Shown here one piece after another: positions 14,849 through 39,545 of a stretch of 39,545 nucleotides of DNA. The stretch spans positions 1 to 39,545 of the forward strand of contig CANQZH010000001.1 of NCBI GenBank assembly GCA_947628245.1, written 5' to 3'. The stretch's first letter is position 1. Every line of letters starts with the position of its first letter. The position numbers were made by a program, and so were the translations under genes. Under the pieces are notes generated by a model. It had not been told where the DNA came from, did not search any database, and saw nothing but the letters and a program-made list of their open reading frames with translations. Source of the DNA: an uncultured Bacilli bacterium (GTDB taxonomy: Bacteria; Bacillota_I; Bacilli_A; RF39; UBA660).

Positions 14849-14856
14849 AAATTCAC

Positions 14857-15832: not shown

Positions 15833-15848
15833 TTACTTATCACCTCTA

Positions 15849-16079
15849 TCATTTAACTGATGTATCTTGTGGTGTACAATTTACAGTAACTACATTTCCA
15901 TCTTTATCTAAGGCACTACAAGAAGTACCCTCACAATGATAAGCAGATGAGCATAATGTTTGACGATTTAAATTATTTTTTATTGCAGGCCATATAAATG
16001 CATAGAAAAATGCTGCTATTGCTGCTATTGCTACTACAGTAATAACTGTTATATTTAATTCACCTGTCGCTTCTTTCAT
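15849..16079 (-). CDS. Flp-like small pilin, paralog 1 (76 aa, 4 Cys)
   Basis: It has a short leader ending in Gly, a ~25-aa hydrophobic helix and a small Cys-containing tail. A strong RBS (GGAGGGA) and a consensus-like promoter lie upstream. Confidence 0.6.
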   Translation of the reverse strand: MKEATGELNITVITVVAIAAIAAFFYAFIWPAIKNNLNRQTLCSSAYHCEGTSCSALDKDGNVVTVNCTPQDTSVK

Positions 16080-19609: not shown

Positions 19610-19637
19610 GAAAAAAAGATAACCAAATTGATTATCT
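19610..19637 (-). terminator. Weak hairpin plus T-run after tadC (possible attenuating terminator)
   Basis: On the minus strand, AGATAA-tcaatttgg-TTATCT is followed by T7. The stem is only 6 bp and AT-rich, and it overlaps the tadC stop. Confidence 0.3.
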
Positions 19638-20424: not shown

Positions 20425-21320
20425 TACTCCACCCCCACATCTTCATAATAGAACCGTTCTCCTTTATATAGAAAGAAACAGTTAATCCATATAATACAAT
20501 GTAATATTAATTGAACATACCACATATCTAATAATTTAATGTAAGAGTCAGTACCAAGCAAAAATTGCATAGCCATAACTAATAAGAATAATGCTAGACC
20601 AAAAGTAACAAATCTTTTATGAAAATCAGCTCGATCAATTTGATCTCGATATACACCTTCAACTAAGGCATCAATATCCATTGATAAATTTTCCAAAGCT
20701 TCACCAGAATCCTTAGCACCTTCTTTAGTAATTTGTAAAAATAACTGATTCATATTTTTAACCATATAATATGGATATTTTTGATTAAAAAATTCAATAG
20801 ATTCATCAATAGTACCATTTTGATATGACATATCAATCATAGTTCTAACATCAGTTAATACGGGATCTTCTAATATACCAGAATCTCTAACACCTTCCAA
20901 AGATTTAACAAAACTTTGAGTAGTTGTAAATTCCATTATAACATTTGTAGTATATATTTGAATTTGTTCAAAAATAAATTCAGAATAAGCTTTTTGACAT
21001 CTTAAATAAGCAAGAAAAGGAATAAACAAAACTGCAACTCCAGCATAGATTAAAGCAATAATAATATTATAAAAATATAAATAAGAAATACCACCCGCAA
21101 CAACAGCAAAAACAACAACTTGAGTTAAATATTGCCTTGGAGTATATTCTTGTCCCAATTCTTTAACCTTTTCTCTTACTTGTTTAAAGCTATAAGGAGC
21201 ATATTTATCATAAGCATTAGCAACGCTTTTAGCAAAGAATTTATAAACATTTTCACCATTATTCATATAATATGAAACTGCAAAAACTGCAATGGCTATA
21301 ATAATTATTAATTCAATCAT
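20424..21320 (-). CDS. tadB: Tad platform protein, TadB-like (T2SS-F domain)
   Basis: It has the same topology class as tadC and lies immediately downstream of the TadA ATPase gene. Confidence 0.6.
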   Translation of the reverse strand: MIELIIIIAIAVFAVSYYMNNGENVYKFFAKSVANAYDKYAPYSFKQVREKVKELGQEYTPRQYLTQVVVFAVVAGGISYLYFYNIIIALIYAGVAVLFIPFLAYLRCQKAYSEFIFEQIQIYTTNVIMEFTTTQSFVKSLEGVRDSGILEDPVLTDVRTMIDMSYQNGTIDESIEFFNQKYPYYMVKNMNQLFLQITKEGAKDSGEALENLSMDIDALVEGVYRDQIDRADFHKRFVTFGLALFLLVMAMQFLLGTDSYIKLLDMWYVQLILHCIIWINCFFLYKGERFYYEDVGVE

Positions 21321-21334: not shown

Positions 21335-22432
21335 CTATAAAGTTTCTATAGTTGCAACATTAGTTGGCTTATTTTTTTCTTCAACAAATATATCATCTGG
21401 TAAAGTTACTCCCGATATTGATAAATACTCTCTTAAATGATTAGTTGGATTATTCATTGTAATTTCACCAGTTAAAGTCTTTTGAAAAATTGTATTTACT
21501 TGAGGTTTATTTTCTTCATCAACATAAAATTCACAAATTTCCATTATTTCTCTTTGATATCTACCTAATTCCTTACTCATATATCCTTTTACATAAATAC
21601 CAATTTGAACATATCGATGAATTGTTGATAAAAACTGTTCAACATCAACATTACTTTCAATTAAGGCAAACATACGCATTGGTATTAAACTTGCTTTATC
21701 AGAGTGAATTGTTGATAAAATATGGTGTCCTGAAGAAATACTATTACGAACAGCCATAACCGCTTCTGCACTACGAACCTCAGATAATAATATCCATATT
21801 GGATTTTGTCTCATACAAGTTACTAACACATCAGTATAACTAGCAATATTATTAGTTTTCATAGCAATAATATCACGATGAGGAAAAATTCGATCTAAAT
21901 GTAATTCCAAAGTATCCTCAATTGTAATAATTTTTTCATTTTCCTTAGTATGAGAAGCTAAATACTTTACCAATTCAGTTTTACCTGAACCAGTCTCTCC
22001 ACTTACTATTATATTAGCATGACCTTCAACACATTTTAATAAAAAATCAAGAAGACTAGCTGAAATATACTGTTCATTTAATAATTTTTCTCTATTCAAT
22101 CTAATTTTAGAAGGTGTTTTTCTTATTTGACAAGCAATACCATTAGTAGCAATAGAATCGTGAATAAAATTTAAACGCAATTCAGCACTTTCAGCATCTA
22201 AAAAAGGATGAGCCATATTGAAAGTTTTACCCATAACATTTGCACATTGGAAAGCTAATTTTTCTAATAAAGCATTATTAATCTCCGGTCTTTCAACTTG
22301 ATATGAACCTTTATCTAAAGATTTTAGCCATACTTGTCCATTATTACAAATAGATATATCGGTAATATTTTCTTCTCTCAAAAACTCATCTATTGGACCA
22401 AAATCCAGTTGTGAAAATATCGCGTCGTTCAC
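21335..22432 (-). CDS. tadA: TadA/CpaF-family secretion ATPase (T2SS-E / VirB11-like)
   Basis: It has Walker A SGETGSGKTELVKYL, an Asp box (IITIEDTLEL), Walker B WILLSEVRSAEA and a His box GHHILSTIHS. Confidence 0.85.
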   Translation of the reverse strand: MNDAIFSQLDFGPIDEFLREENITDISICNNGQVWLKSLDKGSYQVERPEINNALLEKLAFQCANVMGKTFNMAHPFLDAESAELRLNFIHDSIATNGIACQIRKTPSKIRLNREKLLNEQYISASLLDFLLKCVEGHANIIVSGETGSGKTELVKYLASHTKENEKIITIEDTLELHLDRIFPHRDIIAMKTNNIASYTDVLVTCMRQNPIWILLSEVRSAEAVMAVRNSISSGHHILSTIHSDKASLIPMRMFALIESNVDVEQFLSTIHRYVQIGIYVKGYMSKELGRYQREIMEICEFYVDEENKPQVNTIFQKTLTGEITMNNPTNHLREYLSISGVTLPDDIFVEEKNKPTNVATIETL

Positions 22433-22461: not shown

Positions 22462-23304
22462 TTAATCATTATTATTATCATTGTTATTATTATTGTTGCT
22501 ACTTGTACTAGTTGAAATATTTTCATCTGGTATAACTTCAGTTTTAGATAAAATAAATTCTTTAACATAATCACTAGCAACTTCAGTTTCTCCAGGATTT
22601 GCTGTATAGTTCTTATTTCTTGGAACTGGTACTATTTCAACATTATACCCAGATAAATATTGAGCTTTTTTTAGTAATGAATACATATCATCAGGTACTG
22701 CAAATAATAAATCTGATGGTGTTCTTGCTTCACCAGATGTTTCAAATACTGATTTACCCTGTGAATCACGAACATCTAATACTTTAATACTACTAATTAA
22801 ATTAGTATACATTAATCGATTATAATCATTAGTTCCTTTAAACCATAAATCAATATAGTTTCCAGGGAATATTGAGTTACCATATGTAGTATGTAAATCT
22901 ACTGGTAAAGAAAATAATGTATAACCATTAGGAATATCAGCTGTAACACTATCAGGTTGTGTTTCAGGTGAAACAACTGTTTCCGTATAGAAGAAACTAT
23001 TTTGAGGAATAGTCGTTCCATACATAACTTCCTTACCAATTAATTGATTAGCATTTCTAATCATATTACTACTTTTACTCAATACTGTGCTAGAAACTTC
23101 CATAAAGCCAATATCATCATCAGTTATAACATGTCTAGAAGCTAAAGTCGTTTTAGCATATGGAATAGTTGTTGGATTAATAGCATTATTAACCCTCCAA
23201 GTATATCCTAAATACAAAACCAAAATACCAATAACAACACATATAATTGTTACCGTATTCTTATTACTTAAAAATTTCTTTAAATTAGCTCCAATATTTC
23301 CCAT
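22462..23304 (-). CDS. CpaB/RcpC-like pilus assembly protein (N-terminal TM, SAF-like domain) with a poly-Asn C-terminal tail
   Basis: The TM helix is VTIICVVIGILVLYLGY. AKTTLASRHVITDDDIGFMEVSS...LIGKEVMYGTTIPQNSFF matches the SAF/CpaB pattern. The tail is STSTSSNNNNNNDNNND. Confidence 0.55.
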   Translation of the reverse strand: MGNIGANLKKFLSNKNTVTIICVVIGILVLYLGYTWRVNNAINPTTIPYAKTTLASRHVITDDDIGFMEVSSTVLSKSSNMIRNANQLIGKEVMYGTTIPQNSFFYTETVVSPETQPDSVTADIPNGYTLFSLPVDLHTTYGNSIFPGNYIDLWFKGTNDYNRLMYTNLISSIKVLDVRDSQGKSVFETSGEARTPSDLLFAVPDDMYSLLKKAQYLSGYNVEIVPVPRNKNYTANPGETEVASDYVKEFILSKTEVIPDENISTSTSSNNNNNNDNNND

Positions 23305-23321: not shown

Positions 23322-23729
23322 CTAATCATTAGAATTCATTTCTAATAATGCATCTACTCTATTTACAATATCAAAAGTTTCTGTACTAGAATTAATTTGA
23401 TAAGTATTACTTTTAGATGTAACTTCCACACTTACTTTTGGTGGAGCTTCATAAAGATTATAAAAGTTAACTGTACTAGTTCCCGTAGGAATACTTTCAG
23501 ATAATCTTCTTAAAAAATTTTCCACAAATTTTTCTTTATTAATTCTTAATTCTCCACTTTCACGGTAGTAGCCATAATCGACAGCGTCGATCATAGCTGC
23601 TTCCGAAATTTCTTTTAATACATAATAATCTTGAGTATTCGTCGTAGAAACATTAGAAATTAACATCATTATAACAATTACTCCAACACCTAACGCAATT
23701 ATCCAATATCCCCAAAAAGATTCTTTCAT
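23322..23729 (-). CDS. 135-aa protein with a pilin-like N-terminus (cassette B, third gene)
   Basis: The N-terminus is MKESFWG-YWIIALGVGVIVIMMLISNV, followed by a ~105-aa domain. It is a paralog of 27925..28332. Confidence 0.6.
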   Translation of the reverse strand: MKESFWGYWIIALGVGVIVIMMLISNVSTTNTQDYYVLKEISEAAMIDAVDYGYYRESGELRINKEKFVENFLRRLSESIPTGTSTVNFYNLYEAPPKVSVEVTSKSNTYQINSSTETFDIVNRVDALLEMNSND

Positions 23730-23739: not shown

Positions 23740-26700
23740 CTATTTCCAAGATGGTCCAATTCCATCTTTTCTACTTAATACACAATTACCATTAGTTACA
23801 CAATATTTAGAATCTAACCATAAAGTAAAATCAGGTCTTTCAACATTCGAAGTAAAATATTTATTAGAATTACTATTTAAGAAAGTACTACGACATTTAA
23901 CACTATATTCAATACCAGTATTTGGATCAACATATCTTTCACATTTCAAAGCATTTTCTCCAGCATTTTCTTCACCTTCAGGAATAGTAGTATTAGCATA
24001 TGTCTGAGCTTTTTCATTATATGACCTTATATTTGCTTTTTGTTGTTGAGTTATTGTATACGAATATTCTGGATTTTCATAGGCATCTTCACCTAACTCT
24101 TCAATATCATTCTTAGTAGTTTGAGCTTTTAAAGTTTGCCAATTGTATCCAGCATTTCGACAATCACTTTGATTTTCAATAGTACAAGAATTAGGGAATA
24201 AATCATTTAATGTTACAGTTCTAAACTTATAAGTTGTATTATTACCATCAAAGATACAAGTCTTACAATTAACTTCACATTCACCATCACATTCTTCGTG
24301 AATAGTACAATTATCGCCCTCACAACCAACTTCACATTCATCACAGTTATTAACATAAGCACATACATATCCAGCTTCCTGAGTTAATGTACTATTATTA
24401 CCAGTATTTCCACATTTTTTCTCTTGTGGTAACTTATTATATTCAGTTAATACACTAATATTATCACCAGAACTTACTAATCTACCTAATGCATCACTAC
24501 TATTTGATTGACCAATATTACTAAATTTCAAGACAAATGGGAATGCTCCCTTACCAGTTCTAAGTTCAACTGGTAATGCATCAGCAGGTAATCTAGTCCA
24601 TAAGCACTCAGTAAAACTTGTACCTTCGCAAATAGTTCCGCTCTTTACTGTACCATATTGATGGTATGTACTAAAGCTTTGATTTGGAATATAAGTACCA
24701 GCCATTGTCTTAGTCTTTTGAATCCATTTAGCTTGGCTAACAATAGTTTCAGCATTTCGACAACCATTACTATCACAAACAGTATAAGTTAAATTTTTAT
24801 ATAAACCACTAGGAGCAGCACTATTATTTGAAACTAAAGCACCACTTAAACATCTATATTGATTATCAGTATCACCTAAACAATAAGTATCTGAAGTTAC
24901 TGTTGAAACACTGCCACTTAGAGCAAATTTACCATTAGATATTTTAGCATATTCTTCTTCATGATAAGTAAAATTAACCTCTGGACTAAACTTCATACTA
25001 TTTTGCCATCCAGTTGAACAAGCATTGTATTCAGCAATAGTTTCTTGCATTTCATTATTTAAAGCAACTAATTTATTATAATTATCCTCACTCTTATCAG
25101 CATTCCATCTATTATAAGCATTAGTAACTTTTTCATTTATCTTTTTAATATCATCCTCAAATAGCTCAGTATCAATTGGTTTATCAGGATTTTCAGCAGA
25201 ACTTACATAACAATTTCTTGTTCCACTTATTTTAGTAGATAAAGTAAAGTAACCACCACTTGTTGAATATCTAGCTGTTGGTACTGAAAATTGATAATCT
25301 TCATCACACCAAACTTTACAATAACGATTATTTTTCAACTCATTAACAGCTTCATATGAAGTACCAGTCTGATCATTAGCATCTATTACACATTGTTTTA
25401 CAGGATTAACCGTTTCATTACAATCAGACTTAACTTTATTAATATCACTTATTGTACCTGTAATCTCACTTTCAGTATTAAAATTATTACACGTTCCAGG
25501 TACTGAAACAGTTGCATTACAATTTGGACATTTTTCAGCATATTCATCACAAGCTGGATCTTTCGGATTTTGTTCACACTTATCCTTTAATGGTGGACAA
25601 TAACAATCATCTAAGTATTCTCTTTCACTACATTGTTGGCCACCTTGATCTTCAACTTTCTCATTGCAATAATAAACATTATCATCATTTTGATCAGGAG
25701 TTTCACAAATATGTAAACATTGTTTACGATATTTAGCTCTAGTAGTAGCTTTACCATCATTACCATAATATGTTTTATTACCAGCAGCATCATACTCAAT
25801 ACTACAAGAATTAGTACATTTATCAGGACAACCTAATGAACCAACTCTTGGATCATCTTTAAGAACTTTTTCAGTAGAAACATTACCATCAGGAGAAGTT
25901 GTAGATAAAATATAATTTCCTGTATATTTACCATTTACCTCTTCACATACACATTCATTTGTAGGAGGAAGTTTTAACTCAGTTTGAATTAAGAAAGAAG
26001 GACTATAATTCTTAATTACTAACATTCTTTGTTCTGTTTTAAGATTAGGTGGATCGACAACAAACATATTTGCTGTTGGATTTCTATTATCCCTAAATGC
26101 TGTCTTAATTCTAATACCATATTTTTGATCAGCACTTGGTTTACCATTTTTTGTATTAATTCTAACAGTATATCTACCTTTATATCCCCCATTAGGATCA
26201 GCTATTTTTTTCTCAGTAATATCATCTTTGCCATTACAAGTATAACCATTCTCGCAAGTTATTTGAAATTGTTTCCATTTAATTTCTTCAGGCGCATGCC
26301 CATTTTTAGCACTTATATCAAATTTAATAGTAACATAATCGCCTTCTAATTTAGTATTAACAATACTAATATCCCAAGCATCTTCCCAAATAGTTCCATT
26401 TTTTACTAATTGTTCATATGTGGTTTTTTTATTCTTAATTTTATCTCCAACTTTAACAGCATCTTCAGCAATTTTTAAAGCAGCTTTAACAGCAGAATTA
26501 CTTAAATTCCAAAAGCTTCTATTTCTTCTATTTTCCCATAAATACTTACGGTTTTCAACACTACTACCATTACGATTAACATCAAGTTTTCCATAATAAG
26601 CTTCAATCCATCTAAAAACTAAAGTTCCTATCATTCTAACTTGGGCAGATTGTTTACCTCCATCATAATATTTACTTTTTATCATTTGTTGATAAGCATA

Positions 26701-27051
26701 AGTTGCAGCAACATCAGATGCTTGATATGAGCCTTTCTTTTGAGGTGAAATAACTCTTTCACACACGTGACTTTTTTCAATCATATCCTTAGCAGGAGCT
26801 AAACAATATGATTGACCATATAATTCACCATTTTTAGTAATGTTATAAAAATTAATATGTGATCCTGTCGCGTCACTAGAACCAACATGATCTAATCTAA
26901 CATACTTTTCAGGACATTTAGGTTCTTCAGAAGTAACAGCAGCAGTTACATTAAAAAATGTATACTCTTTTTCTTCTGCTTTAACAACATTAACATTAAT
27001 TAATAAAATAAATACATATAAAGTAAATAATACTTTCAAAACTTTTTTCAT
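23740..27051 (-). CDS. 1103-aa secreted Cys-rich protein (cassette B, second gene); no family recognised
   Basis: The Sec signal is MKKVLKVLFTLYVFILLINVNVVKA-EE. I hand-counted about 49 Cys. There is no LPXTG or C-terminal TM helix. It is a paralog of 28344..31766 with conserved Cys positions. Confidence 0.8.
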   Translation of the reverse strand: MKKVLKVLFTLYVFILLINVNVVKAEEKEYTFFNVTAAVTSEEPKCPEKYVRLDHVGSSDATGSHINFYNITKNGELYGQSYCLAPAKDMIEKSHVCERVISPQKKGSYQASDVAATYAYQQMIKSKYYDGGKQSAQVRMIGTLVFRWIEAYYGKLDVNRNGSSVENRKYLWENRRNRSFWNLSNSAVKAALKIAEDAVKVGDKIKNKKTTYEQLVKNGTIWEDAWDISIVNTKLEGDYVTIKFDISAKNGHAPEEIKWKQFQITCENGYTCNGKDDITEKKIADPNGGYKGRYTVRINTKNGKPSADQKYGIRIKTAFRDNRNPTANMFVVDPPNLKTEQRMLVIKNYSPSFLIQTELKLPPTNECVCEEVNGKYTGNYILSTTSPDGNVSTEKVLKDDPRVGSLGCPDKCTNSCSIEYDAAGNKTYYGNDGKATTRAKYRKQCLHICETPDQNDDNVYYCNEKVEDQGGQQCSEREYLDDCYCPPLKDKCEQNPKDPACDEYAEKCPNCNATVSVPGTCNNFNTESEITGTISDINKVKSDCNETVNPVKQCVIDANDQTGTSYEAVNELKNNRYCKVWCDEDYQFSVPTARYSTSGGYFTLSTKISGTRNCYVSSAENPDKPIDTELFEDDIKKINEKVTNAYNRWNADKSEDNYNKLVALNNEMQETIAEYNACSTGWQNSMKFSPEVNFTYHEEEYAKISNGKFALSGSVSTVTSDTYCLGDTDNQYRCLSGALVSNNSAAPSGLYKNLTYTVCDSNGCRNAETIVSQAKWIQKTKTMAGTYIPNQSFSTYHQYGTVKSGTICEGTSFTECLWTRLPADALPVELRTGKGAFPFVLKFSNIGQSNSSDALGRLVSSGDNISVLTEYNKLPQEKKCGNTGNNSTLTQEAGYVCAYVNNCDECEVGCEGDNCTIHEECDGECEVNCKTCIFDGNNTTYKFRTVTLNDLFPNSCTIENQSDCRNAGYNWQTLKAQTTKNDIEELGEDAYENPEYSYTITQQQKANIRSYNEKAQTYANTTIPEGEENAGENALKCERYVDPNTGIEYSVKCRSTFLNSNSNKYFTSNVERPDFTLWLDSKYCVTNGNCVLSRKDGIGPSWK

Positions 27052-27053: not shown

Positions 27054-27815
27054 TTATCTTCCCTCTATATTTTGCTTAAAACCAATTTGTTTTTTTCGAT
27101 ATCTAATTATAGCAACAATAACAATTGCAATTACCAATACCCCTACAATAATAATTTCAATATTTAAAATATTTTTTTTATTACTTTCTTCTTCATTTTC
27201 TTTTTTTGTTTCACTATCATTTTTTTTACTTTCTTGTGATTCTAAATATTCACCATAAGCTGTCTCACCATCTATTTCACTAGTTACATATTCTTGGCAA
27301 TAATAACTATCATTATTTTCACAATACAAATATGAAGAATTTTGATTATACATTGGTGTTTTTAATTCAACTGTTCTTAATTCTTGATTAATACAATCTG
27401 AAACAGCTGAATATATTATTAATTTATAAGTTCTAATTTTAATAGTATCAGGTACTTCATAAGTTATTGTTCCATTTTTAGTATCATTATAATGATACTC
27501 TTTATTTAAACCATCATCAAGATTTTGTAAAACAACATATATCTTATCAGTAACGTTTTCTATTTTAATTGTAACTTTATCCTCCATAAGATATTCACTT
27601 AATTCACCTTCTTCAACACTTGAAGGTGAAACTTCAGGATGAAGAACTCCATTTCTATCATACACAACTGTATCAATGTTGTAATTAAATGTAACATTCG
27701 ATGAAACTGTATTAATTTCAAGTTGAGTTTTATTATCACATTCTGCTTTTACCTTTCCTATCGAAAACATTGTCATTATACATAATAGTAACAAATAAGC
27801 TTTTTCTTTTTTCAT
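27054..27815 (-). CDS. ~253-aa type I membrane protein (cassette B, first gene): signal peptide, beta-rich ectodomain with 4 Cys, acidic/Lys linker, C-terminal TM helix
   Basis: The ORF track starts at 27842, but a near-consensus -10 abuts that ATG. I therefore prefer the ATG at 27815 (MKKEKAYLLLLCIMTMFSIGKVKA-ECDNK), which has GGTGA 7 nt upstream. The C-terminal TM helix is IIIVGVLVIAIVIVAII, followed by RYRKK. Confidence 0.65.
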   Translation of the reverse strand: MKKEKAYLLLLCIMTMFSIGKVKAECDNKTQLEINTVSSNVTFNYNIDTVVYDRNGVLHPEVSPSSVEEGELSEYLMEDKVTIKIENVTDKIYVVLQNLDDGLNKEYHYNDTKNGTITYEVPDTIKIRTYKLIIYSAVSDCINQELRTVELKTPMYNQNSSYLYCENNDSYYCQEYVTSEIDGETAYGEYLESQESKKNDSETKKENEEESNKKNILNIEIIIVGVLVIAIVIVAIIRYRKKQIGFKQNIEGR

Positions 27816-27842
27816 TAATTTCACCAACCCATTTATACTCAT

Positions 27843-27900: not shown

Positions 27901-27927
27901 AAAAAGAGTGAAAAATAACTCACTCTA
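27901..27927 (-). terminator. Rho-independent terminator after cassette A
   Basis: On the minus strand, AGAGTG-agttattttt-CACTCT is followed by a T-run. It overlaps the stop of the 135-aa gene at 27925. Confidence 0.45.
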
Positions 27928-28332
27928 ACTATTTGAATCTAACTCTAATATAGCATCTACTCTATTAACTATATCAAAACTTTCAACATTAGAATTTAAC
28001 TGATAAGTATTACTTTTTGTTATAACTTGAACACTAGCTTTTGGAGGAGATTCATAAATACTATAAAAATCAATTTGATAAGTACTTAAAGATACATTTT
28101 CTGCAAATCTTCTTAAAAAATTTTCTACAAATTTTTCTTTATTTATTCTTAACTCTCCACTTTCACGATAATAACCATAATCTACAGCATCTACCATTGC
28201 CGCTTCAGATATTTCTTTTAAAACATAATAATCTTGAGTATTAGTTGCTGAAACATTAGATATTAGCATCATAACTATTATAACTCCAACACCTAAAACT
28301 ATTAACCAATAGCCCCAATAAGATTCTTTCAT
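27925..28332 (-). CDS. 135-aa protein with a pilin-like N-terminus (cassette A, third gene)
   Basis: The N-terminus is MKESYWG-YWLIVLGVGVIIVMMLISNV. The first ~75 aa are almost identical to 23322..23729. Confidence 0.6.
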   Translation of the reverse strand: MKESYWGYWLIVLGVGVIIVMMLISNVSATNTQDYYVLKEISEAAMVDAVDYGYYRESGELRINKEKFVENFLRRFAENVSLSTYQIDFYSIYESPPKASVQVITKSNTYQLNSNVESFDIVNRVDAILELDSNS

Positions 28333-28343: not shown

Positions 28344-31300
28344 CTATTTCCAAGATGGTCCAATTCCATCAGTCCTACTTAAACAATTACCTAATGGACA
28401 ATAATCAGTTTCAGTCCATAATTTAAATCCACTAGCATTTCTTGCAAGTTGAGTAAAATATTTACCAGTATTTTCATTTAAGAAAGTACTTACACATTTA
28501 ACACTGTAATCTAAACCATTATAATTTTTCTTTTTACACTGATAAGCATCAGTCCCATCTTCCATTGTCGTATTTTCATATGTACCTACGTCTTTATTAT
28601 ATTGTCTTATAGCCATTAATTGACTAGCAGTTACTAAATAAGAATACTCAGGAGTTTCATAAACACCATTACCATTACCTTCAATATCATTTTTAGTAAC
28701 CTGTGCTTTTAAAGTTTGCCAATTATAACCTTCTTTTCGACAATTTACACTATTAGTTTCACAAGAATTAGGGAATAAATTATTTAATGAAACAGTTCTA
28801 AATTTATATGTCGTATTTTCTCCATCAAATATACAAGTCTTACAAGACACTGGACAATCACCTTCACAAGTTTCATGAATAGAACAACTATCTCCCTCAC
28901 ATCCAACACTACAAGAATCACAATTATTAACATAAGCACAAACATAACCAGCTTCTTGTTCAAATATTCCTCTTGGATTTTCACACTGAGCAACATCAGA
29001 AGTAACATAAGCATTTAATACACTATTGCTTCTTCCAATTAATCTTCCTAATGAATTATCAATATTTGATTGACCAATATTTGCAAATGAAAGAACAAAC
29101 TTAAAGGCACCTTTACCAGTTTTAAGTTCAACCGGTAAAGCATCATCTGGAAGTCTAGTCCATAAACAACTATCATAACCAGTTACCGAACATACAGAAC
29201 CAGTTTTAACTGTTCCATATTGATGATAAGTATTAAAATTTTGACCTGGAGTAAAATTACCCGATTTAGTTACTGTTTTTTGAATCCAATTTGCAAGATT
29301 AATTCCAAAACTATTCCACGTACAAGTACTTTCATTACAACTAATATATTGATAAATAGAACCAGTCATCGGTGGTGTAGAATAAGATGTTCCAATACAA
29401 TTATATTGACTATTTATATTACCAACACAATAATTTACCGAACTACTAACACTTGGGTCTCCAACCATTTTAAATGTACCAGCTCTTGTATCATAACCAT
29501 AATCATCATAATTAAAGTTAATTGCCGGATTAAAATTCAAATCAGAATCAGGCATATTAACCCAATTAGAACAAGCTTGATAATTACTAACATATAATTG
29601 AATATTAGTATTAGTTCTTTCATACAAACTTCTACTCTTACTTTCTTGATCAATAATTTCATTTTTAGACATCTCAACTTGTTCACCACTTACAACATTA
29701 CTATGACTAGCATCAGTTATTTGAAGATAATTTGCACAAGTATATTTCTTATCTTCATCACTAGCTGGATCACTTCCTGTACCAGCAAGACAAGCTCTCC
29801 ATTTACTCCATTCATTCCAATATCTTAATAAATCAACATTTAAAGCAGAAATTTCATTAATAAATTCCGTACTATTAATACCTTCAGTTGGATCATCAGC
29901 AGAAGCCGTATAACAATTTCTTGTTCCGGTAATCGCAGCATTTAAAGTGAAATATCCACCACTAGTAGAATATCTTGCAGTTGGAACTGTAAATTGATAA
30001 TTTTCATCACAATATACTTTACAATATCTATTTCCATTCATAAGTTTCTTAGCTTCAAAACTTTCACCAGACATATCATTTTTACCTAGAACACACATCT
30101 TAACATTATTAGCACTATTATTACAAGCTGTCTTAGCTGGATTTATATCATAGAAATAACCACCAACAGATGAATTAACATCAAAATCATTACAACTATT
30201 TGGAATTGATGAACTAGCTCGACAATTAGGACATTTTTCTTCGTACTCAGCACAATCAGGATCACTAGGATTAGCAGTACATTTTTCTTTTCTAGGTGTA
30301 CAATAACATTCTTCAATATATTCTTGACCATTACATACCCTACCGCTATTATCAGTTCCTGGATCAGCACAATAATAAAGACCTTCTTCATTATCACTAG
30401 GAGTTTCACAAATATGTAAACATTGGCTCTTATATGTAGCTTGATCAACAATATTACTACTTCCATCATCAGTATCTTTACCATAATAAGTTACAGTACC
30501 ATCAGGATTTACAATTCTCTCACATTCATAATCTTCGGTATCACCGCAAGGAGGGCAATTATAAGTAGCAAAATTTGGATCAGTATTGTCAACAATTGCA
30601 CTTGTTGTTACTCCATTTGTAGTAGTATATAAAATATATCTACCAGTATAATTATTAGAATCATCTGCTTCACAAACACAAGAAGTAGTTGGTTCAAATG
30701 GAATTTCCCTTTGTATTTGAAACGTTTTACTATAATTTTTAACTAAAATAAATTTTTGATAACTTGCATGGTTTGTTGGTTTATATATCATTATATGAGC
30801 ATTTGGATTTTTTATATCACCATAGCTTACTGTAACTTTAGCAAGATTATATTTTTCGTTCCATTTACCCTTCGTCTTTTGAATAGTTATATTAAAAGTT
30901 CCACTTCTATTTTTATTACTACTAACTAAACTACTACTAACTAATTTATTATTATCATTTTTAGTTTCGAATTTAAAACTTCCCCAATTGACTACACTAG
31001 GAGCTTTTACAGGATTTTTAGGAGCTATCGTAACATTTAAAACTACATTATTTTTATCATCAGGACCAGTAACACTATTAATTGTTGAAATCCACTCATC
31101 AGTCCATATTACTCCAGCATCAACTAATTGTTGATAAGTTTTCTTACCCTTTAAAATATAATCACCATATTTTACAGCATCCTTAACTAAAGATAAAGCA
31201 GCTTTAACCTCGGATGTATCTTGATACCAATATGTTGTACTATTTCGGCTTTTATAAGAGAAAATATTAAATTTATAATCATTATCTCCAATTGACTCTA

Positions 31301-31766
31301 AATAACCATATCGTGACGCAATCCATCTAAATGCCATCGTTCCAATTAAACTACTTCTTCTTCTACCACTACTCTCCGTATTTGAAATATATTTATTAGC
31401 AATCATTAATTGATAAGCTCTCGTAATTGCTACATCAAAAGCTTGCCTATTAAGGCTAGATGAATTTTCAGGATTAATTTCTCTAACACAAGTATGTTGT
31501 CCGTTATTAAAATCAGATGTAGCCCCAGGTTTAAAACAAAAAGCTTGACCATAAGCCCCTGTATTACTTGAAGCCTTTTTTTTAGTAGTAAACATATTAT
31601 AAAAATTAATAACATCTTTTTTACAATGTGATCTATCTACCCCAACATGATGCAAATATAAATAAGTGTATTGGCAACCTCCATCAGAAATATTTTTTCC
31701 CTCTGCTTTTACTACACTTAAAAAACAAAATAATAAGATAAAACTATATATTATTTTTTTAAACAT
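28344..31766 (-). CDS. 1140-aa secreted Cys-rich protein (cassette A, second gene); no family recognised
   Basis: The Sec signal is MFKKIIYSFILLFCFLSVVKA-EG. I hand-counted about 50 Cys. It ends ...DGIGPSWK like its paralog, and has no wall-sorting signal. Confidence 0.8.
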   Translation of the reverse strand: MFKKIIYSFILLFCFLSVVKAEGKNISDGGCQYTYLYLHHVGVDRSHCKKDVINFYNMFTTKKKASSNTGAYGQAFCFKPGATSDFNNGQHTCVREINPENSSSLNRQAFDVAITRAYQLMIANKYISNTESSGRRRSSLIGTMAFRWIASRYGYLESIGDNDYKFNIFSYKSRNSTTYWYQDTSEVKAALSLVKDAVKYGDYILKGKKTYQQLVDAGVIWTDEWISTINSVTGPDDKNNVVLNVTIAPKNPVKAPSVVNWGSFKFETKNDNNKLVSSSLVSSNKNRSGTFNITIQKTKGKWNEKYNLAKVTVSYGDIKNPNAHIMIYKPTNHASYQKFILVKNYSKTFQIQREIPFEPTTSCVCEADDSNNYTGRYILYTTTNGVTTSAIVDNTDPNFATYNCPPCGDTEDYECERIVNPDGTVTYYGKDTDDGSSNIVDQATYKSQCLHICETPSDNEEGLYYCADPGTDNSGRVCNGQEYIEECYCTPRKEKCTANPSDPDCAEYEEKCPNCRASSSIPNSCNDFDVNSSVGGYFYDINPAKTACNNSANNVKMCVLGKNDMSGESFEAKKLMNGNRYCKVYCDENYQFTVPTARYSTSGGYFTLNAAITGTRNCYTASADDPTEGINSTEFINEISALNVDLLRYWNEWSKWRACLAGTGSDPASDEDKKYTCANYLQITDASHSNVVSGEQVEMSKNEIIDQESKSRSLYERTNTNIQLYVSNYQACSNWVNMPDSDLNFNPAINFNYDDYGYDTRAGTFKMVGDPSVSSSVNYCVGNINSQYNCIGTSYSTPPMTGSIYQYISCNESTCTWNSFGINLANWIQKTVTKSGNFTPGQNFNTYHQYGTVKTGSVCSVTGYDSCLWTRLPDDALPVELKTGKGAFKFVLSFANIGQSNIDNSLGRLIGRSNSVLNAYVTSDVAQCENPRGIFEQEAGYVCAYVNNCDSCSVGCEGDSCSIHETCEGDCPVSCKTCIFDGENTTYKFRTVSLNNLFPNSCETNSVNCRKEGYNWQTLKAQVTKNDIEGNGNGVYETPEYSYLVTASQLMAIRQYNKDVGTYENTTMEDGTDAYQCKKKNYNGLDYSVKCVSTFLNENTGKYFTQLARNASGFKLWTETDYCPLGNCLSRTDGIGPSWK

Positions 31767-32536
31767 TATACTCCCCTCATACTTTCCATCTCTTTAGTTC
31801 TTTTTCTTCTCTTAAAAATACTAACAATAATTATAACTAACAATATAAAAATAATCACAATCCCAACAGAATATAATATTATATTTTTAGAATTATCTTC
31901 TTTATTATTTTGAGTAGGATTTTCTTCTTCATCAGGCGTTTCCATATTTTTCATATACTCGTCTAATAAACGTCTATATTCACTTTCACTTATACTAACA
32001 TCAGTTGTAACATATTTATTACAATAACTAGCATTATTATTTTGACAAACACCTTCTTCAAAATAATCATTATACTTAGGTGTTGCAACTTCTATTTTCC
32101 TTAATTCTTCCGTTTCACAATCCAAAGACTCTGAAAAAATTGTCAAAGTATAATGTCTAATATTTAAAGTATCAGGAACATCATAAATAAGAGAGCCATC
32201 TTCTAAATCTTTATAATGATATTCTTTATTAATGTTATCCTCGGCACTATATAAAGCAACATACACTTTATCAGTAACATTACTAATTTTAAGCACAACC
32301 CTTTCATCTAATTGATAAGATGAAGTTTCAGAAATTTCAATATCACTAGGATTCAATTCCCGATGAATATTACCATCAATATCAAAAACAAACGTTTCAA
32401 TTTCATAATCCATAGTAACATTAGAAGCAGCCGTACTAAGTTCTAATCGAGCTTTACTATCACATACAGCATTAACTTTATTAATAAAACCAAACAAAAC
32501 AAGTAAAAATAACAAATATCTGCCTGTGTTTTTCAT
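31766..32536 (-). CDS. ~256-aa type I membrane protein (cassette A, first gene)
   Basis: The ORF-track start (TTG at 32569) lies inside the predicted -10 element. I prefer the ATG at 32536 (MKNTGRYLLFLLVLFGFINKVNA-VCDSK). The C-terminal TM helix is ILYSVGIVIIFILLVIIIVSIF, followed by KRRKR. There is a TAATG overlap with the 1140-aa gene. Confidence 0.65.
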   Translation of the reverse strand: MKNTGRYLLFLLVLFGFINKVNAVCDSKARLELSTAASNVTMDYEIETFVFDIDGNIHRELNPSDIEISETSSYQLDERVVLKISNVTDKVYVALYSAEDNINKEYHYKDLEDGSLIYDVPDTLNIRHYTLTIFSESLDCETEELRKIEVATPKYNDYFEEGVCQNNNASYCNKYVTTDVSISESEYRRLLDEYMKNMETPDEEENPTQNNKEDNSKNIILYSVGIVIIFILLVIIIVSIFKRRKRTKEMESMRGV

Positions 32537-32559
32537 ATTACCATTCCTATCTTTAGTTA

Positions 32560-32588
32560 AATATACCAAAAATAAATAATTAATTCAA
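32560..32588 (-). promoter_or_regulatory. SigA-type promoter of cassette A (TG-extended -10)
   Basis: On the minus strand, TTGAAT (32588..32583), a 17-nt spacer and TGgTATATT (-10 at 32565..32560). The layout matches the cassette B promoter. Confidence 0.5.
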
Positions 32589-32681: not shown

Positions 32682-33386
32682 ATGAATTTAAAAAAATTAG
32701 GAAAAGCATTTTTAATTATTATTTTATATTTGGTAATTGTTCCCCAAATAATTGGTTTAATTTGTTTACCATTTTTTGATTTAGAAAATCCCACTGTTTT
32801 AACAATCTTAAATTTATTAATCTATATTATCGATATAATTATTATTTTTATTATATATCGTAAAAGCATTAAAGAAGAATGGCACAAATTCACCAAAAAT
32901 TTTAAAAATTATTTTAGTATAGCCTTAAAAAATTGGGGAAAAGGTTTTTTATTAATGTTTATTTTTAATATAATAATTATTAATGTAGTTGGTAAAATAG
33001 CTAGTAATGAATCACAAAATAGAGAAATATTAAATCAATTACCAGTCTTTTCTTCCATAGCAATGGTTTTCTTAGGACCTATATTAGAAGAATTTGCTTT
33101 TCGAAAAGGTTTTAAAGATGTTTTTAAATCAGAAAAAATCTTCTTAATCTTTACTGCTCTTTTATTTGGTTCTTTCCACGTAATTAGTAATTTAGATTAT
33201 AGTTCTATCCAAGCCTTTCTAAGTAGTTCAAAAGAATTACTATACATTTTACCTTATGCTAGTTTAGGTTATTATTTTGGTAAAGCCTATTATGAAACTG
33301 ATTGTATTTTTACTAGTATAACAGCTCATATGCTACATAATGGTATATCTATTTTCTTTATTTTATTAGGAACAATGTTAGGATGA
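32682..33386 (+). CDS. CPBP-family intramembrane glutamic protease (CAAX protease / Abi-like)
   Basis: It is polytopic and carries the CPBP motifs EEFAFRKG, FGSFH and HMLHN. Confidence 0.75.
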   Translation: MNLKKLGKAFLIIILYLVIVPQIIGLICLPFFDLENPTVLTILNLLIYIIDIIIIFIIYRKSIKEEWHKFTKNFKNYFSIALKNWGKGFLLMFIFNIIIINVVGKIASNESQNREILNQLPVFSSIAMVFLGPILEEFAFRKGFKDVFKSEKIFLIFTALLFGSFHVISNLDYSSIQAFLSSSKELLYILPYASLGYYFGKAYYETDCIFTSITAHMLHNGISIFFILLGTMLG

Positions 33387-33390
33387 TCAT

Positions 33391-34233
33391 ATGGAAGATA
33401 CTTCAAAAAAAATTAATCCCTTAATTAAAATATTAATAATTTTACTTTTAATAATTATAATTATCTATAGTTGGATGCATTTTATTGAGCCAAAAATTAT
33501 AACTGTTAAAGACTATATTTTAACCAATGAAAAAATACCTAAATCTTTTAATGGTTTTACAATAGTTCATTTTTCTGATATTCATTTTGGTCGAACAACA
33601 AATGAAAAAGAAGTTAATAAAGTAATTGCCAAAATAAATGAAATGAAACCTGATATAGTCCTATTTTCAGGTGATTTATTTGATCCATATATTACTTTAT
33701 CAGATAATAATATAACATTTTTAAAAGAAGCTTTTAGTAATATCAATGCTAAAATCAAAAAATATGCCGTCTATGGAGATCAAGACATAACTAATAAAGA
33801 TAAATATACCGAAATATTAAATACGGCTAATTTTGAAATCTTAAATGGCACAAATAATAAAATTTATTATAATGGAAATATTCCTATTTATATAAGTGGT
33901 ATTTCATCAATTAGTAAAGAACAACCAGATTATAGTAAAGCATTTAAAAAAGACCAAGATAGTCTTCAATTATTTTTAAGCCACGAACCAGGTGTTATAA
34001 TGGATATCAAAAATCAAGCTGATTTTATTTTCAGTGGTCATACTCTAGGAGGTTTAATTAAAATTCCTTTTATAGGGGGTATCATAAAACAAGAAAATTC
34101 TCTAAATTATGAATCAGGTAAATATATTGAAGATAAAACGACAATCTTTGTTAACAACGGTATTGGTACCGAAGACTTTTCTTTAAGATTATTTAATTTT
34201 CCTACAATATATTGCTATCGCTTTAAAGCATAG
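33391..34233 (+). CDS. Membrane-anchored calcineurin-like metallophosphoesterase (YkuE-like) with partly degenerate motifs
   Basis: An N-terminal TM helix is followed by FSDIHFG (motif I), SGDLFD (II), YGDQD in place of GNH[DE] (III), LSHEP, and GHTLGG in place of GHTHGG (V). Confidence 0.65.
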   Translation: MEDTSKKINPLIKILIILLLIIIIIYSWMHFIEPKIITVKDYILTNEKIPKSFNGFTIVHFSDIHFGRTTNEKEVNKVIAKINEMKPDIVLFSGDLFDPYITLSDNNITFLKEAFSNINAKIKKYAVYGDQDITNKDKYTEILNTANFEILNGTNNKIYYNGNIPIYISGISSISKEQPDYSKAFKKDQDSLQLFLSHEPGVIMDIKNQADFIFSGHTLGGLIKIPFIGGIIKQENSLNYESGKYIEDKTTIFVNNGIGTEDFSLRLFNFPTIYCYRFKA

Positions 34234-37760: not shown

Positions 37761-39545
37761 TTAACGTTTAAAACTCTCTGCTTCACATTCATTTTCATAT
37801 TTTTGTAAACTAACTAAATAATTTACCATTACTTCATAAAACATACTAAGATTATTTTCTTCTAATAATTTTTTAGCTTCTAAATATTCTCTTTTCTTAA
37901 TTAATTTTTTTAAATTAGCTAATAAATCAAGATATTTTGTATTATTAAATAAACTACTATTATCTTCATTATTATTACTTTGATTTTTATTAGTAGCTTT
38001 AATTTTTAAATTAACTAATATTTTTCTAACAGCTGAATAATATTTAGGATTAGCATTTTTTTGACTAAACCATTCATCACAATTCATTAAATCTAAAGCA
38101 GTTTTATAATCACCAAATTTTAAAGCTTTATTAAAACTATCAATTATCGAACCATTTTTCTTAATTGGACTAAAATAATTTTCAAAATCAAAATTAGTAC
38201 CATTTAAATTAAGATATGTTTCAATTAAATGTAATAAACTATCTTCAGCTTCACTTAATTTAACAACTTTTTCTTTATTATTTAAAGCAAACTGTAAATC
38301 TAATAAATAATTAAGAGAAAAACGATTATTAATAATATCATCTAATAAACAATCAATCTTTAAATCAGCTTCTTTTACTTTTAATTGTTGATCATTTTGA
38401 TCTTGATATTTATTCATTATATTAACAACATCTTTTAAAATAGCTTTATAAATAATAAATTTAGAATCTCCATCTTTAGCACAAATATCAACAATCTTTA
38501 AAGCCCATCTATAATCTCCTATATTAAGAGCTTCATAAAAATTATTAATAATATTTTCATCTTGATAATTGTAACTAATATTATTGTAAGTAACCATTCC
38601 TTTAGAAACATTATCAATGAAATTAATTAATTTCAATAAATCTAAATAAAACGATTCTTTAGCTCCATTTAAATTCTTAGACAAAATTACTTTTAAATCA
38701 CTATATTTTTTCTCTCTTATTAATTTTAAAAGATATTCATCAGTTAAAACAGTTGAAACCTTTTTAGAATATTTTTTATTTAAATTATTAACAGTACTTA
38801 ATAAAGAACGATAAATCTTTAAAATATTACTTGTCGGATTAAAATAAAGACATTTACCAATATTTTTATAGGCAGTTTGATAATCTTTATTTTTTAAAGC
38901 TAAATCTAAAAGAAAATTATAATCTTTAATATCAGGATAAATCATTGATTCAGGTTTTAAACCACAATGATTTTTATCCATTTCTATAATAGTTTTTAAA
39001 AGATTAGCAATATGATAATAATATTTTTTAGTAGATTCACTAGTATACTTTTCAGCATTTAAACAACTACTTAAAGCTTGTTCATAATCTTCATTAAAAA
39101 CATTTTCTTGTAATTGTTTAAAATAAAATTTAAAACTCATAGCTTTATTTTTTAACTTAGCTTCTTCTCTTTTCTTTATTGCAATTTGTTGTTCTTTTTC
39201 TTTAATTTTAAATTCAATAGAAGTTACCTCTTCTAATAAAATTTCAACTATAACAGTGGATAACTCATTATTTTTATGTAACTTTTTTTCAGCAAGATAA
39301 TATTTATTAAATGACTCTAACGCTAACTCATATTTATGAGTTAATATTTGTTCATAAGCTAAATTATAATTAACATCATCATTATCTTTTGCATAATAAA
39401 GATTATTAATAAAACTAAAATCACAATTCTCAAATTTTAAAATTTCTTCTAACAAAATAGCATATAATAAAGAATTCTTATCTTCAATTTCATCTAAAGA
39501 AAGATACTCTCTCAAATATTTATAAGCTTCTTTCCAATCTTTTTT
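37761..39545 (-). CDS. Helical-repeat (TPR-like) protein, probably truncated at its N-terminus by the window edge
   Basis: Repeated xDYxxAL/xxA motifs occur (GDYKTALDL, GDYRWALKI, KDYQTAYKN, EDYEQALSS). The reading frame stays open from 39515 to the window end (KKDWKEAYKYL...), and the track start is only a TTG. Confidence 0.5.
   Translation of the reverse strand, partial: KKDWKEAYKYLREYLSLDEIEDKNSLLYAILLEEILKFENCDFSFINNLYYAKDNDDVNYNLAYEQILTHKYELALESFNKYYLAEKKLHKNNELSTVIVEILLEEVTSIEFKIKEKEQQIAIKKREEAKLKNKAMSFKFYFKQLQENVFNEDYEQALSSCLNAEKYTSESTKKYYYHIANLLKTIIEMDKNHCGLKPESMIYPDIKDYNFLLDLALKNKDYQTAYKNIGKCLYFNPTSNILKIYRSLLSTVNNLNKKYSKKVSTVLTDEYLLKLIREKKYSDLKVILSKNLNGAKESFYLDLLKLINFIDNVSKGMVTYNNISYNYQDENIINNFYEALNIGDYRWALKIVDICAKDGDSKFIIYKAILKDVVNIMNKYQDQNDQQLKVKEADLKIDCLLDDIINNRFSLNYLLDLQFALNNKEKVVKLSEAEDSLLHLIETYLNLNGTNFDFENYFSPIKKNGSIIDSFNKALKFGDYKTALDLMNCDEWFSQKNANPKYYSAVRKILVNLKIKATNKNQSNNNEDNSSLFNNTKYLDLLANLKKLIKKREYLEAKKLLEENNLSMFYEVMVNYLVSLQKYENECEAESFKR

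Follow-up and report, generated by a model that had tools for sequence, protein, structure and literature searches.

A 39,545-nucleotide stretch of DNA from an uncultured Bacilli bacterium (GTDB lineage Bacteria; Bacillota_I; Bacilli_A; RF39; UBA660), which comprises positions 1 to 39,545 of the forward strand of contig CANQZH010000001.1 (GenBank assembly GCA_947628245.1) and is referred to from here on as the window, encodes two giant cysteine-rich proteins, A and B, in one operon with the genes of a Tad-like type IV filament machine. We propose that the two giants are sortase-independent covalent adhesins displayed by this filament, perhaps by way of their C-terminal peptide, a reading that we favour with modest confidence. 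It draws on a predicted thioester domain (TED) at the N-terminus of the giants, on the behaviour of their cysteines across a large family of relatives, and on a gene order that was kept at the further loci examined.

Two giant paralogues with Sec-type leaders and no sorting signal

Giant A (28344..31766, minus strand; 1140 aa, 51 cysteines, 4.47%) is a predicted secreted thioester adhesin, and giant B (23740..27051, minus strand; 1103 aa, 49 cysteines, 4.44%) is its paralogue, aligning with it from end to end at 41% identity. Both open reading frames (ORFs) lie where a first-pass annotation of this DNA had placed them, and the hand count given there, about 50 cysteines or 4-5% of residues, agrees with ours; the cysteine-containing strings that it quoted (CVCE, QCLHICETP, CYCPP, KCPNC and YCKVWCDE) are all present. 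Cysteine makes up on average 0.91% of the 23 other ORFs of the window (binomial P ~8e-20 for A and ~6e-19 for B). Closely spaced cysteines occur as CxC (two in each giant), CxxC (four in A, three in B) and CxxxC (five in A, seven in B).

Read by eye from the sequence, the N-termini of both giants show the leader pattern that the annotation had described as a Sec signal peptide, with a basic n-region, a hydrophobic core and a cleavage site formed by VKA and a following E; in A the Sec-type signal peptide covers residues 1-21 (MFKKIIYSFILLFCFLSVVKA, followed by E; 31704..31766, minus strand). The sole hydrophobic segment of each protein is found in its first ~23-26 residues, and neither has a C-terminal hydrophobic segment or transmembrane helix. 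A motif scan of A and B found no LP.T[GAS] motif, and Pfam and NCBIfam gave no domain match for either, hence no LysM, SLH or choline-binding repeats. The motif, hydrophobicity and family scans thus bear out the earlier statement that such anchors are missing, and the lack of both an LPXTG motif and a C-terminal transmembrane segment upholds the proposal that the giants are held independently of sortase. Direct searches of A and B against PDB sequences found nothing, and no match to a known cysteine-rich family emerged from sequence or profile searches. The shared C-terminus DGIGPSWK ends both giants as first described; its last seven residues, GIGPSWK, which are the hallmark of the family described below, are encoded at 28347..28367 in A and at 23743..23763 in B (minus strand in both).

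A predicted class II-type thioester domain

One part of the first-pass annotation does not stand. It had seen no recognisable functional module in the giants, and the fold match and Cys and Gln motifs reported here indicate that the N-terminus is most likely an adhesin domain of the class II thioester type. We hold it to be probable, on sequence and model comparison, that this region is a divergent class II-type TED with a predicted thioester bond. The predicted domain of A covers residues ~30-350 (30717..31679, minus strand) and consists of four strands, a helical bundle, a seven-strand beta-sandwich insert and a strand carrying the Gln. The predicted thioester residues are Cys77 (codon 31536..31538) and Gln337 (30756..30758) in A, and Cys83 (26803..26805) and Gln341 (26029..26031) in B, all on the minus strand. 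This assignment is based on a Foldseek match, on the conservation of Cys77 and Gln337 within published motifs, on the order of secondary-structure elements expected of class II, and on a profile alignment to known TEDs.

An AlphaFold2 (AF2) model of A, built on a 70-sequence alignment, has a mean predicted local distance difference test score (pLDDT) of 78.9, and most of its first ~350 residues score above 80. In a Foldseek search of PDB the sole significant target of this model was 6fwy, the TED of Enterococcus faecium TIE86, matched through its chains C and A (E 7e-5 and 1e-4; probability 1.0). PDB matches of the kind of RmlT and Brr2 were dismissed as weak (TM <= 0.15), and a search of viral structures (BFVD) gave nothing. 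Class II TEDs combine a barrel with a bundle of three helices, with a seven-stranded sandwich inserted ahead of the Gln strand (PMC6194298). In the model of A the Cys ends the third strand and is followed by helices at 105-123, 135-152 and 185-205, by seven strands within 225-330 and then by the Gln strand, a predicted order that matches that of class II TEDs.

TEDs have been defined by three motifs: a bond-forming Cys motif, [YFL]C-hydrophobic-hydrophilic; a weak bond-forming Gln motif, hydrophobic-Q-hydrophilic-hydrophobic-hydrophobic; and TQxx-hydrophobic-W on helix alpha2, whose Gln and Trp are not essential for bond formation, the Cys and Gln of the first two being the only universal residues (PMC6194298, the class II TED structure paper). 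Residue conservation and Cys covariation in the family were scored on a 126-sequence alignment. The N-terminal third of the proteins is poorly conserved in it, at ~25% per column; Cys77 is kept in 123 of the 126 relatives, within [YF]C[LIVM][DSN][PA]G (FCFK in A, YCLA in B), and Gln337 is kept in 119, followed by [RNKD]-[MF]-[LIVY]-hydrophobic-hydrophobic. At the position of the third motif, in the second helix and with the same spacing, the family has [GT][EQN]xA[FLVI]R, its Arg147 being present in 113 of 116 ungapped sequences. Columns cut from the same alignment were compared by hhalign with nine TEDs of the type found in TIEpLS20, a class II TED adhesin (gene 34 of pLS20) that is essential for mating in liquid and in which Cys68, within YCID, is itself essential in pLS20 (PMC8092201). 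The N-terminus of the family aligned with these TEDs over 53 columns (P 8e-4), and its Cys motif was placed on the YCID Cys of TIEpLS20; a control with the C-terminal core of the family gave P 0.57.

Several results weigh against the assignment. The Foldseek TM-score to the 6fwy TED is only 0.45 (normalised to the target), and the TQxx-hydrophobic-W motif is replaced by [GT][EQN]xA-hydrophobic-R. Neither Pfam TED (PF08341) nor TED_2 (PF20610) matches A or B at E <= 0.1, and Pfam TED matches just one of 44 relatives (E 0.005), while the positive control, TIEpLS20, matches both models. A PDB profile search with 70 relatives returned only noise from designed helical repeats.

A large unnamed family with a conserved C-terminal end

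The giants are members of a large family, as yet unnamed, that comprises at least 438 clusters. This number comes from an exhaustive profile search for relatives of A and B (clusters at 50% identity, E <= 1e-3; 190 clusters at E <= 1e-30), which corrected the false impression of rarity left by a word-index homologue search that had given only one relative. None of the ten clusters that were looked up carries a name, and the family is without a Pfam or NCBIfam model. Members are mostly 900-1400 aa long and have ~30-67 cysteines per protein, with Sec-type leaders and a median of 3.7% Cys in the full-length ones. Among the GTDB representative genomes the closest are four rabbit-gut metagenome-assembled genomes (MAGs) labelled 'uncultured Bacilli', at 43% identity, given which the organism is probably a gut anaerobe.

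The C-terminal end reads GP[SA]W[KR] in 101 of 151 relatives, and in another 16 the motif lies among the last 16 residues, with a short polar tail behind it; the remaining relatives, without the exact motif, are fragments or near variants (GPSYR, GLSWK, GPAYK). A literature search for the motif found nothing relevant. A peptide that ends in Lys might also serve head-to-tail polymerisation, the TED of one giant attacking the C-terminal Lys of the next, an idea to which we attach very little probability.

After the predicted TED, A divides into a variable Cys-rich stalk (residues ~357-560; 30087..30698, minus strand) and a conserved family core (residues 561-1133; 28368..30086, minus strand). 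More than half of the relatives lack residues ~361-480 (gap fraction 0.57-0.63). Conservation along A is highest in the core, where C582, C586, E588, C618, C732, R908 and N1015 are invariant. In the model the core is made up of beta-rich parts, a long helical hairpin (632-733), a Cys cluster and a C-terminal alpha/beta part, and Foldseek found no significant match to it in PDB or BFVD. Beyond about residue 350 there is likewise no significant Foldseek match to an Ig or Cna fold, and no Pfam match. The giants are not classified here as ordinary adhesins of the sortase-anchored kind, because both a sorting signal and a Cna stalk were looked for and not found.

Cysteine pairs, parity and the nine-Cys cluster

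The first-pass annotation had supposed that the giants are stabilised by many disulfides or by bound metal. Comparison of the relatives makes a strong case for the first, with roughly two dozen disulfides predicted. Across the 126 relatives the variable cysteines are gained and lost as nine reciprocal best-partner pairs, with phi values of 0.82-0.98. The tightest is 1077-1091 (phi 0.98), for which both cysteines are present in 91 relatives, neither in 34, and a single relative is mismatched; it is followed by 859-867 (0.97), 1002-1009 (0.95), 810-815 and 780-790 (0.91 each), 466-478 (0.88), 548-928 (0.87), whose members lie 380 residues apart, 496-512 (0.85) and 489-505 (0.82). Three of these pairs (466-478, 489-505 and 496-512) are in the stalk. 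Other pairings among the 30 highest-scoring listed have phi <= 0.79.

The total number of cysteines after the leader is odd in 104-114 of the 126 relatives for any leader cut at residues 15-25 (P <= 6e-14), and several of the apparent exceptions stem from the crudeness of the cut. Taken together, paired gain and loss and odd totals suggest disulfides plus one cysteine outside them, which agrees with Cys77 being either in a thioester or free, and a parity rule of this kind is not predicted by metal binding. Only the total is informative, as splitting parity between the TED and the remainder of the protein gave no clean result. Two observations go the other way: A itself is even, with 50 mature cysteines, and no thiol-disulfide oxidoreductase gene was found within the window.

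Besides Cys77 there are 16 near-invariant cysteines, namely 515, 525, 558, 582, 586, 618, 732 and nine that lie within residues 943-978 (CAYVNNCDSCSVGCEGDSCSIHETCEGDCPVSCKTC; 28833..28940, minus strand), each of the nine being conserved in >=96% of sequences. Covariation is silent on this cluster because its cysteines never vary, and it could be either a disulfide knot or a metal site. The alternative that the cysteines, at least those of the cluster, bind Zn or Fe-S rather than forming disulfides gains from the two CxxC pairs (949/952 and 975/978), which lie 22 residues apart and resemble a zinc ribbon, and from the fact that AF2 cannot model this segment, with pLDDT below 50 across most of residues 950-1001. 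It also gains from the kind of organism involved, a low-GC spore former and probable gut anaerobe, exported proteins of Firmicutes reportedly tending to exclude Cys. The variable cysteines elsewhere, however, all behave as disulfide pairs under a parity rule that covers the whole protein, the 16 other invariant cysteines can pair fully, and the pilins and the membrane partner of the system also have conserved, even sets of cysteines. We therefore consider metal binding in place of disulfides unlikely. Conserved cysteines in the pilins, the minor pilins and the type I membrane partner, which has four invariant ones, suggest moreover that oxidative folding is general for the exported parts of the system.

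Gene order and divergence across loci

The giants occur in a triplet whose order, a type I membrane protein of ~240-267 aa, the giant, and a DUF5411 protein, is found in the window and in nine of nine further loci examined (L003, L004, L005, L006, L008, L009, L010, L011 and L012, of which L009 is a near-duplicate of L008). It is kept even where the giant is only ~25% identical to A. The two neighbours that the first-pass annotation had named, a type I membrane protein and a 135-aa pilin-like protein, are thus real, they are duplicated together with the giants, and their linkage to the giants is confirmed by the triplet order, which supports the earlier idea that partners probably retain the giants on the cell. 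The window has two complete triplets, whereas L005 and L006 have two membrane-protein/giant pairs with one DUF5411 gene; at every examined locus a DUF5411 gene lies directly downstream of the giant or, where giants stand in tandem, of the last of them. Where enough downstream sequence is available (L004, L006, L008/L009 and L012), the triplet is always followed by a CpaB-like protein and an ATPase.

The membrane partner of A (31766..32569, minus strand) has a signal peptide, an ectodomain of ~150 aa with four invariant cysteines, an acidic linker, a transmembrane helix and a basic tail, and its stop codon overlaps the start of A. The partner of B (27054..27842, minus strand) is 40% identical to it. 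The starts listed for these two proteins (a TTG in one, an upstream ATG in the other) are probably too far 5', as an alignment of eight relatives places a conserved MKK start at Met12 (32536) for the partner of A and at Met10 (27815) for that of B. Downstream of A lies DUF5411 pilin-like protein 1 (27925..28332, minus strand; 135 aa, no Cys; Pfam PF17424, E 2.9e-55), with an N-terminal hydrophobic helix (transmembrane residues 4-31), and downstream of B lies DUF5411 protein 2 (23322..23729, minus strand; E 1.4e-53), 76% identical to copy 1. A PDB profile search with DUF5411 found nothing.

Identity to the window copies differs between the components. The giant is 45-46% identical in L003/L004 and 26-30% in L005/L006/L008, and the membrane partner follows closely (45-46% and 24-32%, respectively). 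For DUF5411 the corresponding values are 87-90% and 58-72%, for the ATPase 93-94% in L003/L004 and 73-76% in L006/L008, and for the platform proteins, conserved overall at 62-92%, they are 87-92% and 62-77%. The giant and its partner thus drift together while the machine stays conserved, suggesting a fast-evolving adhesin/partner cassette on a conserved machine. With such a cassette a conserved plug element is to be expected, and the invariant C-terminal peptide, facing the conserved DUF5411 protein, is the obvious candidate. A cassette that evolves fast and is sometimes duplicated resembles exchangeable adhesive heads, and has a bearing on the specificity of gut bacteria for hosts or partners.

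The same data can be read in another way, in which the giant is a cell-surface adhesin held by the type I membrane protein alone, the pilus genes being separate or aiding its passage across the wall. Translational coupling of the partner to each giant (stop and start overlapping or near-abutting), their joint duplication, co-divergence of the sort seen in specific binding pairs, and the possession by the partner of a stalk-like acidic linker and a transmembrane anchor would all be accounted for. What would be left unexplained is the constant position of DUF5411 behind a single giant or behind the last of a tandem pair, and the invariance of the extreme C-terminus while the giant drifts to ~25% identity; furthermore, pLS20-type modules have retained adhesin, DUF5411 and ATPase, with no annotated gene of partner-like size and position between adhesin and DUF5411. 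On balance we judge anchoring by the partner alone to be rather improbable, though it is the alternative that we rank highest.

Machine genes of the operon

From 32569 down to 13311 all genes are on the minus strand and tightly packed. The order in the window is membrane protein (267 aa), A, DUF5411, membrane protein (262 aa), B, DUF5411, CpaB-like protein, ATPase and platform pair. The CpaB/RcpC-like protein (22462..23304, minus strand) is matched by Pfam RcpC with E 2.3e-6 (27.9 bits, the cut-off being 28.8) and by NCBIfam pilus_cpaB with E 2.4e-8, also below cut-off, and its tail is poly-Asn/Asp (SSNNNNNNDNNND). The ATPase (21335..22432, minus strand; Pfam T2SSE, E 4e-25) is of the CpaF/TadA/VirB11 secretion type; CpaF, VirB11 and FlaI in PDB all match it at ~2e-16, so that its subfamily is left unassigned. 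Two polytopic membrane proteins (298 and 262 aa; 19636..21320, minus strand) occupy the TadB/TadC position, to which they are assigned by position and topology, and may form a distinct platform family.

Between these platform-like genes and the pilins are a glycosyltransferase of family 2 (GT2; bactoprenol-sugar type) and a YfhO membrane protein (16140..19555, minus strand), which might serve to glycosylate filament parts or teichoic acid outside the cytoplasm. In L003 this position is occupied by ORFs of 321 and 838 aa that match the GT2/YfhO pair by size only, and in L004 a GT2 gene comes after the operon instead. Three tandem genes for small pilin-like proteins of 76-78 aa follow (15349..16079, minus strand), each protein having an unusually short N-terminus, MKEATGELN, then a hydrophobic helix and 4-6 Cys in an ectodomain of ~40 aa; they have no Pfam match and no Flp G/xxxxEY motif. 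Two minor-pilin-like proteins of 157 and 162 aa (14360..15330, minus strand) begin with M-R-[EQ]-[AS]-x-G and a hydrophobic helix and are conserved in L004, L006 and L008. A start of the form M-[KR]-[EQ]-[AST]-x-G is common to these two proteins and DUF5411. The operon ends with a 345-aa protein in the TadZ position (13311..14348, minus strand), which has no Pfam or PDB match and is kept in position and size in other loci.

A machine of this composition need not build a lasting fibre. Type IV filament machines include secretion systems, and as the giant lacks an anchor of its own and a CpaB-like conduit protein is present, the Tad-like machine could be a type II secretion-like pseudopilus that drives the giant, already folded and disulfide-bonded, across the thick wall and sets it free as a soluble factor. 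We think this quite unlikely. A long cross-linked stalk topped by a thioester head is how tethered adhesins are built, three tandem major-pilin genes suggest a real fibre, and the pLS20 adhesin acts from the donor cell in the formation of mating pairs.

Proposed mechanism

In the mechanism that we propose, each giant would be exported by Sec, and an internal thioester between Cys77 and Gln337 in A, or Cys83 and Gln341 in B, would react with a nucleophile on the target surface to give covalent adhesion, a step for which the case is fairly strong. The stalk and core would be held by disulfides, in place of the isopeptide and ester cross-links of sortase-anchored thioester adhesins. The giant would then work together with the co-encoded Tad-like type IV filament machinery, to which it is linked by gene order. 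By analogy with better-known systems, the [IV]GP[SA]W[KR] C-terminal peptide may be captured by DUF5411, with the 157- and 162-aa minor pilins building a tip complex; such a capture would resemble the addition of the C-terminal strand of PilC/PilY1 to PilK. The type I membrane protein, translationally coupled upstream, might hold the giant paired with it at the membrane until capture takes place, a holder being proposed because a monoderm has no periplasm in which to retain the giant. The two cassettes of the window would represent two alternative adhesive heads for the filament.

A more specific form of this proposal, which we offer tentatively and expect less of, is an unrecognised 'covalent harpoon' pilus, that is, a Tad-like filament whose tip carries a sortase-independent TED adhesin docked via its C-terminal peptide into DUF5411. 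Some findings count against a filament-borne adhesin of this kind. The peptide GIGPSWK is not an obvious beta strand, since it contains Gly and Pro. The platform-position proteins have no T2SSF match (Pfam at E <= 0.1; the PDB profile search was empty), and no gene for an A24 prepilin peptidase lies within the window. As neither a T2SSF match, nor an Flp motif, nor a prepilin peptidase was found, we do not assign the locus to the canonical Tad systems.

To our knowledge, no bacterial adhesins other than the thioester adhesins are known to attach covalently to their targets, and those so far known are sortase-anchored wall proteins or sit at the tips of sortase pili. If the proposal is correct, there is a second route by which thioester adhesins are displayed, on a type IV (Tad-like) filament, and a second design of force-resistant stalk, with disulfides instead of isopeptide or ester bonds, in a bacterial group expected to avoid exported cysteines.

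Genomic setting of the locus

The window has ~26% G+C, which is even throughout, the locus included. To one side of it lie pcrA, ligA and a gene for a class II aminoacyl-tRNA synthetase, and to the other a gene of the Mur ligase family. These surroundings bear on whether an integrated conjugative element is present, with the locus as its mating-pair-formation part and the giants gluing donor to recipient in the manner of TIEpLS20. Homology to pLS20 genes 34-39 extends over the TED adhesin, DUF5411, the ATPase (32% identity) and, weakly, the membrane proteins, but relaxase, VirD4, VirB4 and VirB6 are absent from the window, the flanks are housekeeping genes, base composition is even across the locus, and relatives hold the locus in chromosomal contexts. 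A conjugative role is therefore highly improbable here.

A gene for a CotJB spore-coat family protein lies at 400..861 (minus strand; Pfam E 2e-23), on the basis of which the organism is taken to be a spore former, as fits a low-GC member of the Bacillota. Its presence, together with the high Cys content of the giants, would be in keeping with their being spore-surface proteins (coat, exosporium or appendage), which are typically Cys-rich in Firmicutes. The giants nonetheless have Sec signal peptides, share an operon with pilins and a filament machine driven by a membrane ATPase, and carry at the N-terminus a predicted TED, which is an adhesin module, while the CotJB gene has no relation to the operon and lies at a distance of ~23 kb; of all the alternatives we give this one the least credence.

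Divergent from the adhesin operon, an Rce1-like CPBP intramembrane protease and a metallophosphoesterase are encoded at 32682..34233 (plus strand; Pfam). The same pair adjoins the locus in L005, L006 and L008/L009 despite differing outer flanks, and is missing from two of six loci, L004, which has FtsE, FtsX and M23 genes there, and L012. It is conceivable that the Rce1-like protease processes the pilins or the conserved C-terminus.

Elsewhere in the window, a DUF6568 protein (972..1667, plus strand) has a long Lys/Thr/Ala-rich low-complexity N-terminus, and a 94-aa ORF antisense to its gene (938..1222, minus strand) is almost certainly a repeat artefact. A 584-aa ORF (37761..39515, minus strand) and a 279-aa ORF (5238..6077, plus strand) have no significant Pfam match. 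Among the other loci, L008 (20101..21074) and L009 (17794..18767) have, downstream of the pilus operon, two small proteins, the 119-aa one of which weakly matches T4SS_pilin (VirB2/TrbC-like), and an 856-aa ORF. In L004, from a rabbit-gut MAG, an RVT_1 reverse-transcriptase gene (4299..5327) lies ~4 kb upstream of the adhesin operon.

Comparison with known systems

The sortase-anchored thioester-isopeptide-ester proteins (TIEs) BaTIE, SaTIE and EfmTIE86 (PDB 6fwv/6fwy) resemble the giants in carrying an N-terminal TED on a long, covalently cross-braced stalk. Unlike them, the giants of the window have no sorting signal, their stalk is predicted to be cross-linked by disulfides, not by isopeptide or ester bonds, and an Arg takes the place of the Trp in the third motif. 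Cpa of the Streptococcus pyogenes sortase pilus is likewise a thioester adhesin at the tip of a Gram-positive pilus. Its TEDs are of class I and it is joined covalently by sortase, whereas the window has a Tad-like filament to which attachment would be non-covalent. A system described in 2022 combines a CpaF-type ATPase, a PilC/GspF-like protein, DUF5411 and a large putative adhesion/invasion protein (PMC9523054); that large protein was likened to internalins and not presented as a Cys-rich TED protein, and no mechanism was proposed there.

A model for capture by the C-terminus is provided by PilC/PilY1, the last ~10 residues of which add the final strand to the sheet of the minor pilin PilK, as those of MshQ do by modelling; the PilI-PilJ pair then recognises the PilC/PilY1-PilK complex, which both licenses assembly and keeps the adhesin at the tip when load is applied (2026 PNAS, PMC13533445). 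Like the giants, PilC/PilY1 and MshQ are Sec-exported non-pilin adhesins of ~1000-1200 aa with a conserved extreme C-terminus and minor-pilin neighbours. The window encodes a comparable cast, with two conserved minor pilins, a small pilin-like protein and an adhesin of ~1100 aa side by side. It differs in that the host is a monoderm, the machine is Tad-like, and there is no sequence or fold similarity between the giants and PilC/PilY1: as a further point against the analogy, no PilY1-like fold or beta-propeller is among the Foldseek matches listed, and Pfam gave no match to a PilY1 family.

A further close likeness is to the pLS20 family of conjugative plasmids, which are found in Bacillus, Listeria and Terribacillus. 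In pLS20 (NC_015148) the adhesin gene is followed by two small ORFs, a 126-aa protein that matches DUF5411 (E 1.4e-5) and the gene 37 ATPase. The window ATPase is 32% identical to the latter (E 3e-40), much closer than it is to CpaF, VirB11 and FlaI in PDB (~2e-16). By hhalign, pLS20 p38 and p39 are weakly similar to, but collinear with, the 298- and 262-aa proteins of the window (P 0.009 and 0.0009), and small hydrophobic proteins follow this platform-like pair in pLS20. Plasmids of Listeria and Terribacillus have the same gene order, with adhesins that lack LPXTG. The pLS20 family and the window thus have in common an adhesin with a Sec leader, an N-terminal class II TED (predicted in the window) with a YC[IL]D-type motif and no LPXTG, followed, in the plasmids after one or two small ORFs, by a DUF5411-like protein (~126 aa in the plasmids), a CpaF/VirB11 ATPase, two membrane proteins (~245-270 aa in the plasmids) and small hydrophobic proteins. 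The C-terminus of the pLS20-family adhesins also ends in Trp-(aliphatic)-Lys (NWLKK in pLS20), or in the related NWIKSH and EWIKNQ of the Listeria and Terribacillus plasmids.

The differences are equally clear. pLS20-type adhesins have one Cys, a Cna/Ig-like stalk and 767-869 aa, in contrast to the ~30-67 Cys, unique 580-aa core and GP[SA]WK ending of the window family. The window locus, unlike pLS20, is chromosomal and without conjugation genes, and it alone has the type I membrane partner, the CpaB-like protein, three major pilins and the TadZ-position protein. The paper on the pLS20 family lists genes 36 and 38-41 as of unknown function and gene 37 as a putative VirB11, and states that Gram-positive conjugative elements form no pili. 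It also reports no VirB2 homologue; we observe that pLS20 p45 (76 aa) matches T4SS_pilin (E 1.3e-7).

TIEpLS20 has no LPXTG motif and is sortase-independent, and its attachment is an open question in the pLS20 literature. If the mechanism proposed for the giants is correct, pLS20-family genes 34-41 would encode a conjugative adhesion pilus, contradicting the view that Gram-positive conjugative elements make no pili. Such a pilus would explain the retention of TIEpLS20 on the donor and give a testable answer to the question of how this adhesin stays on the cell.

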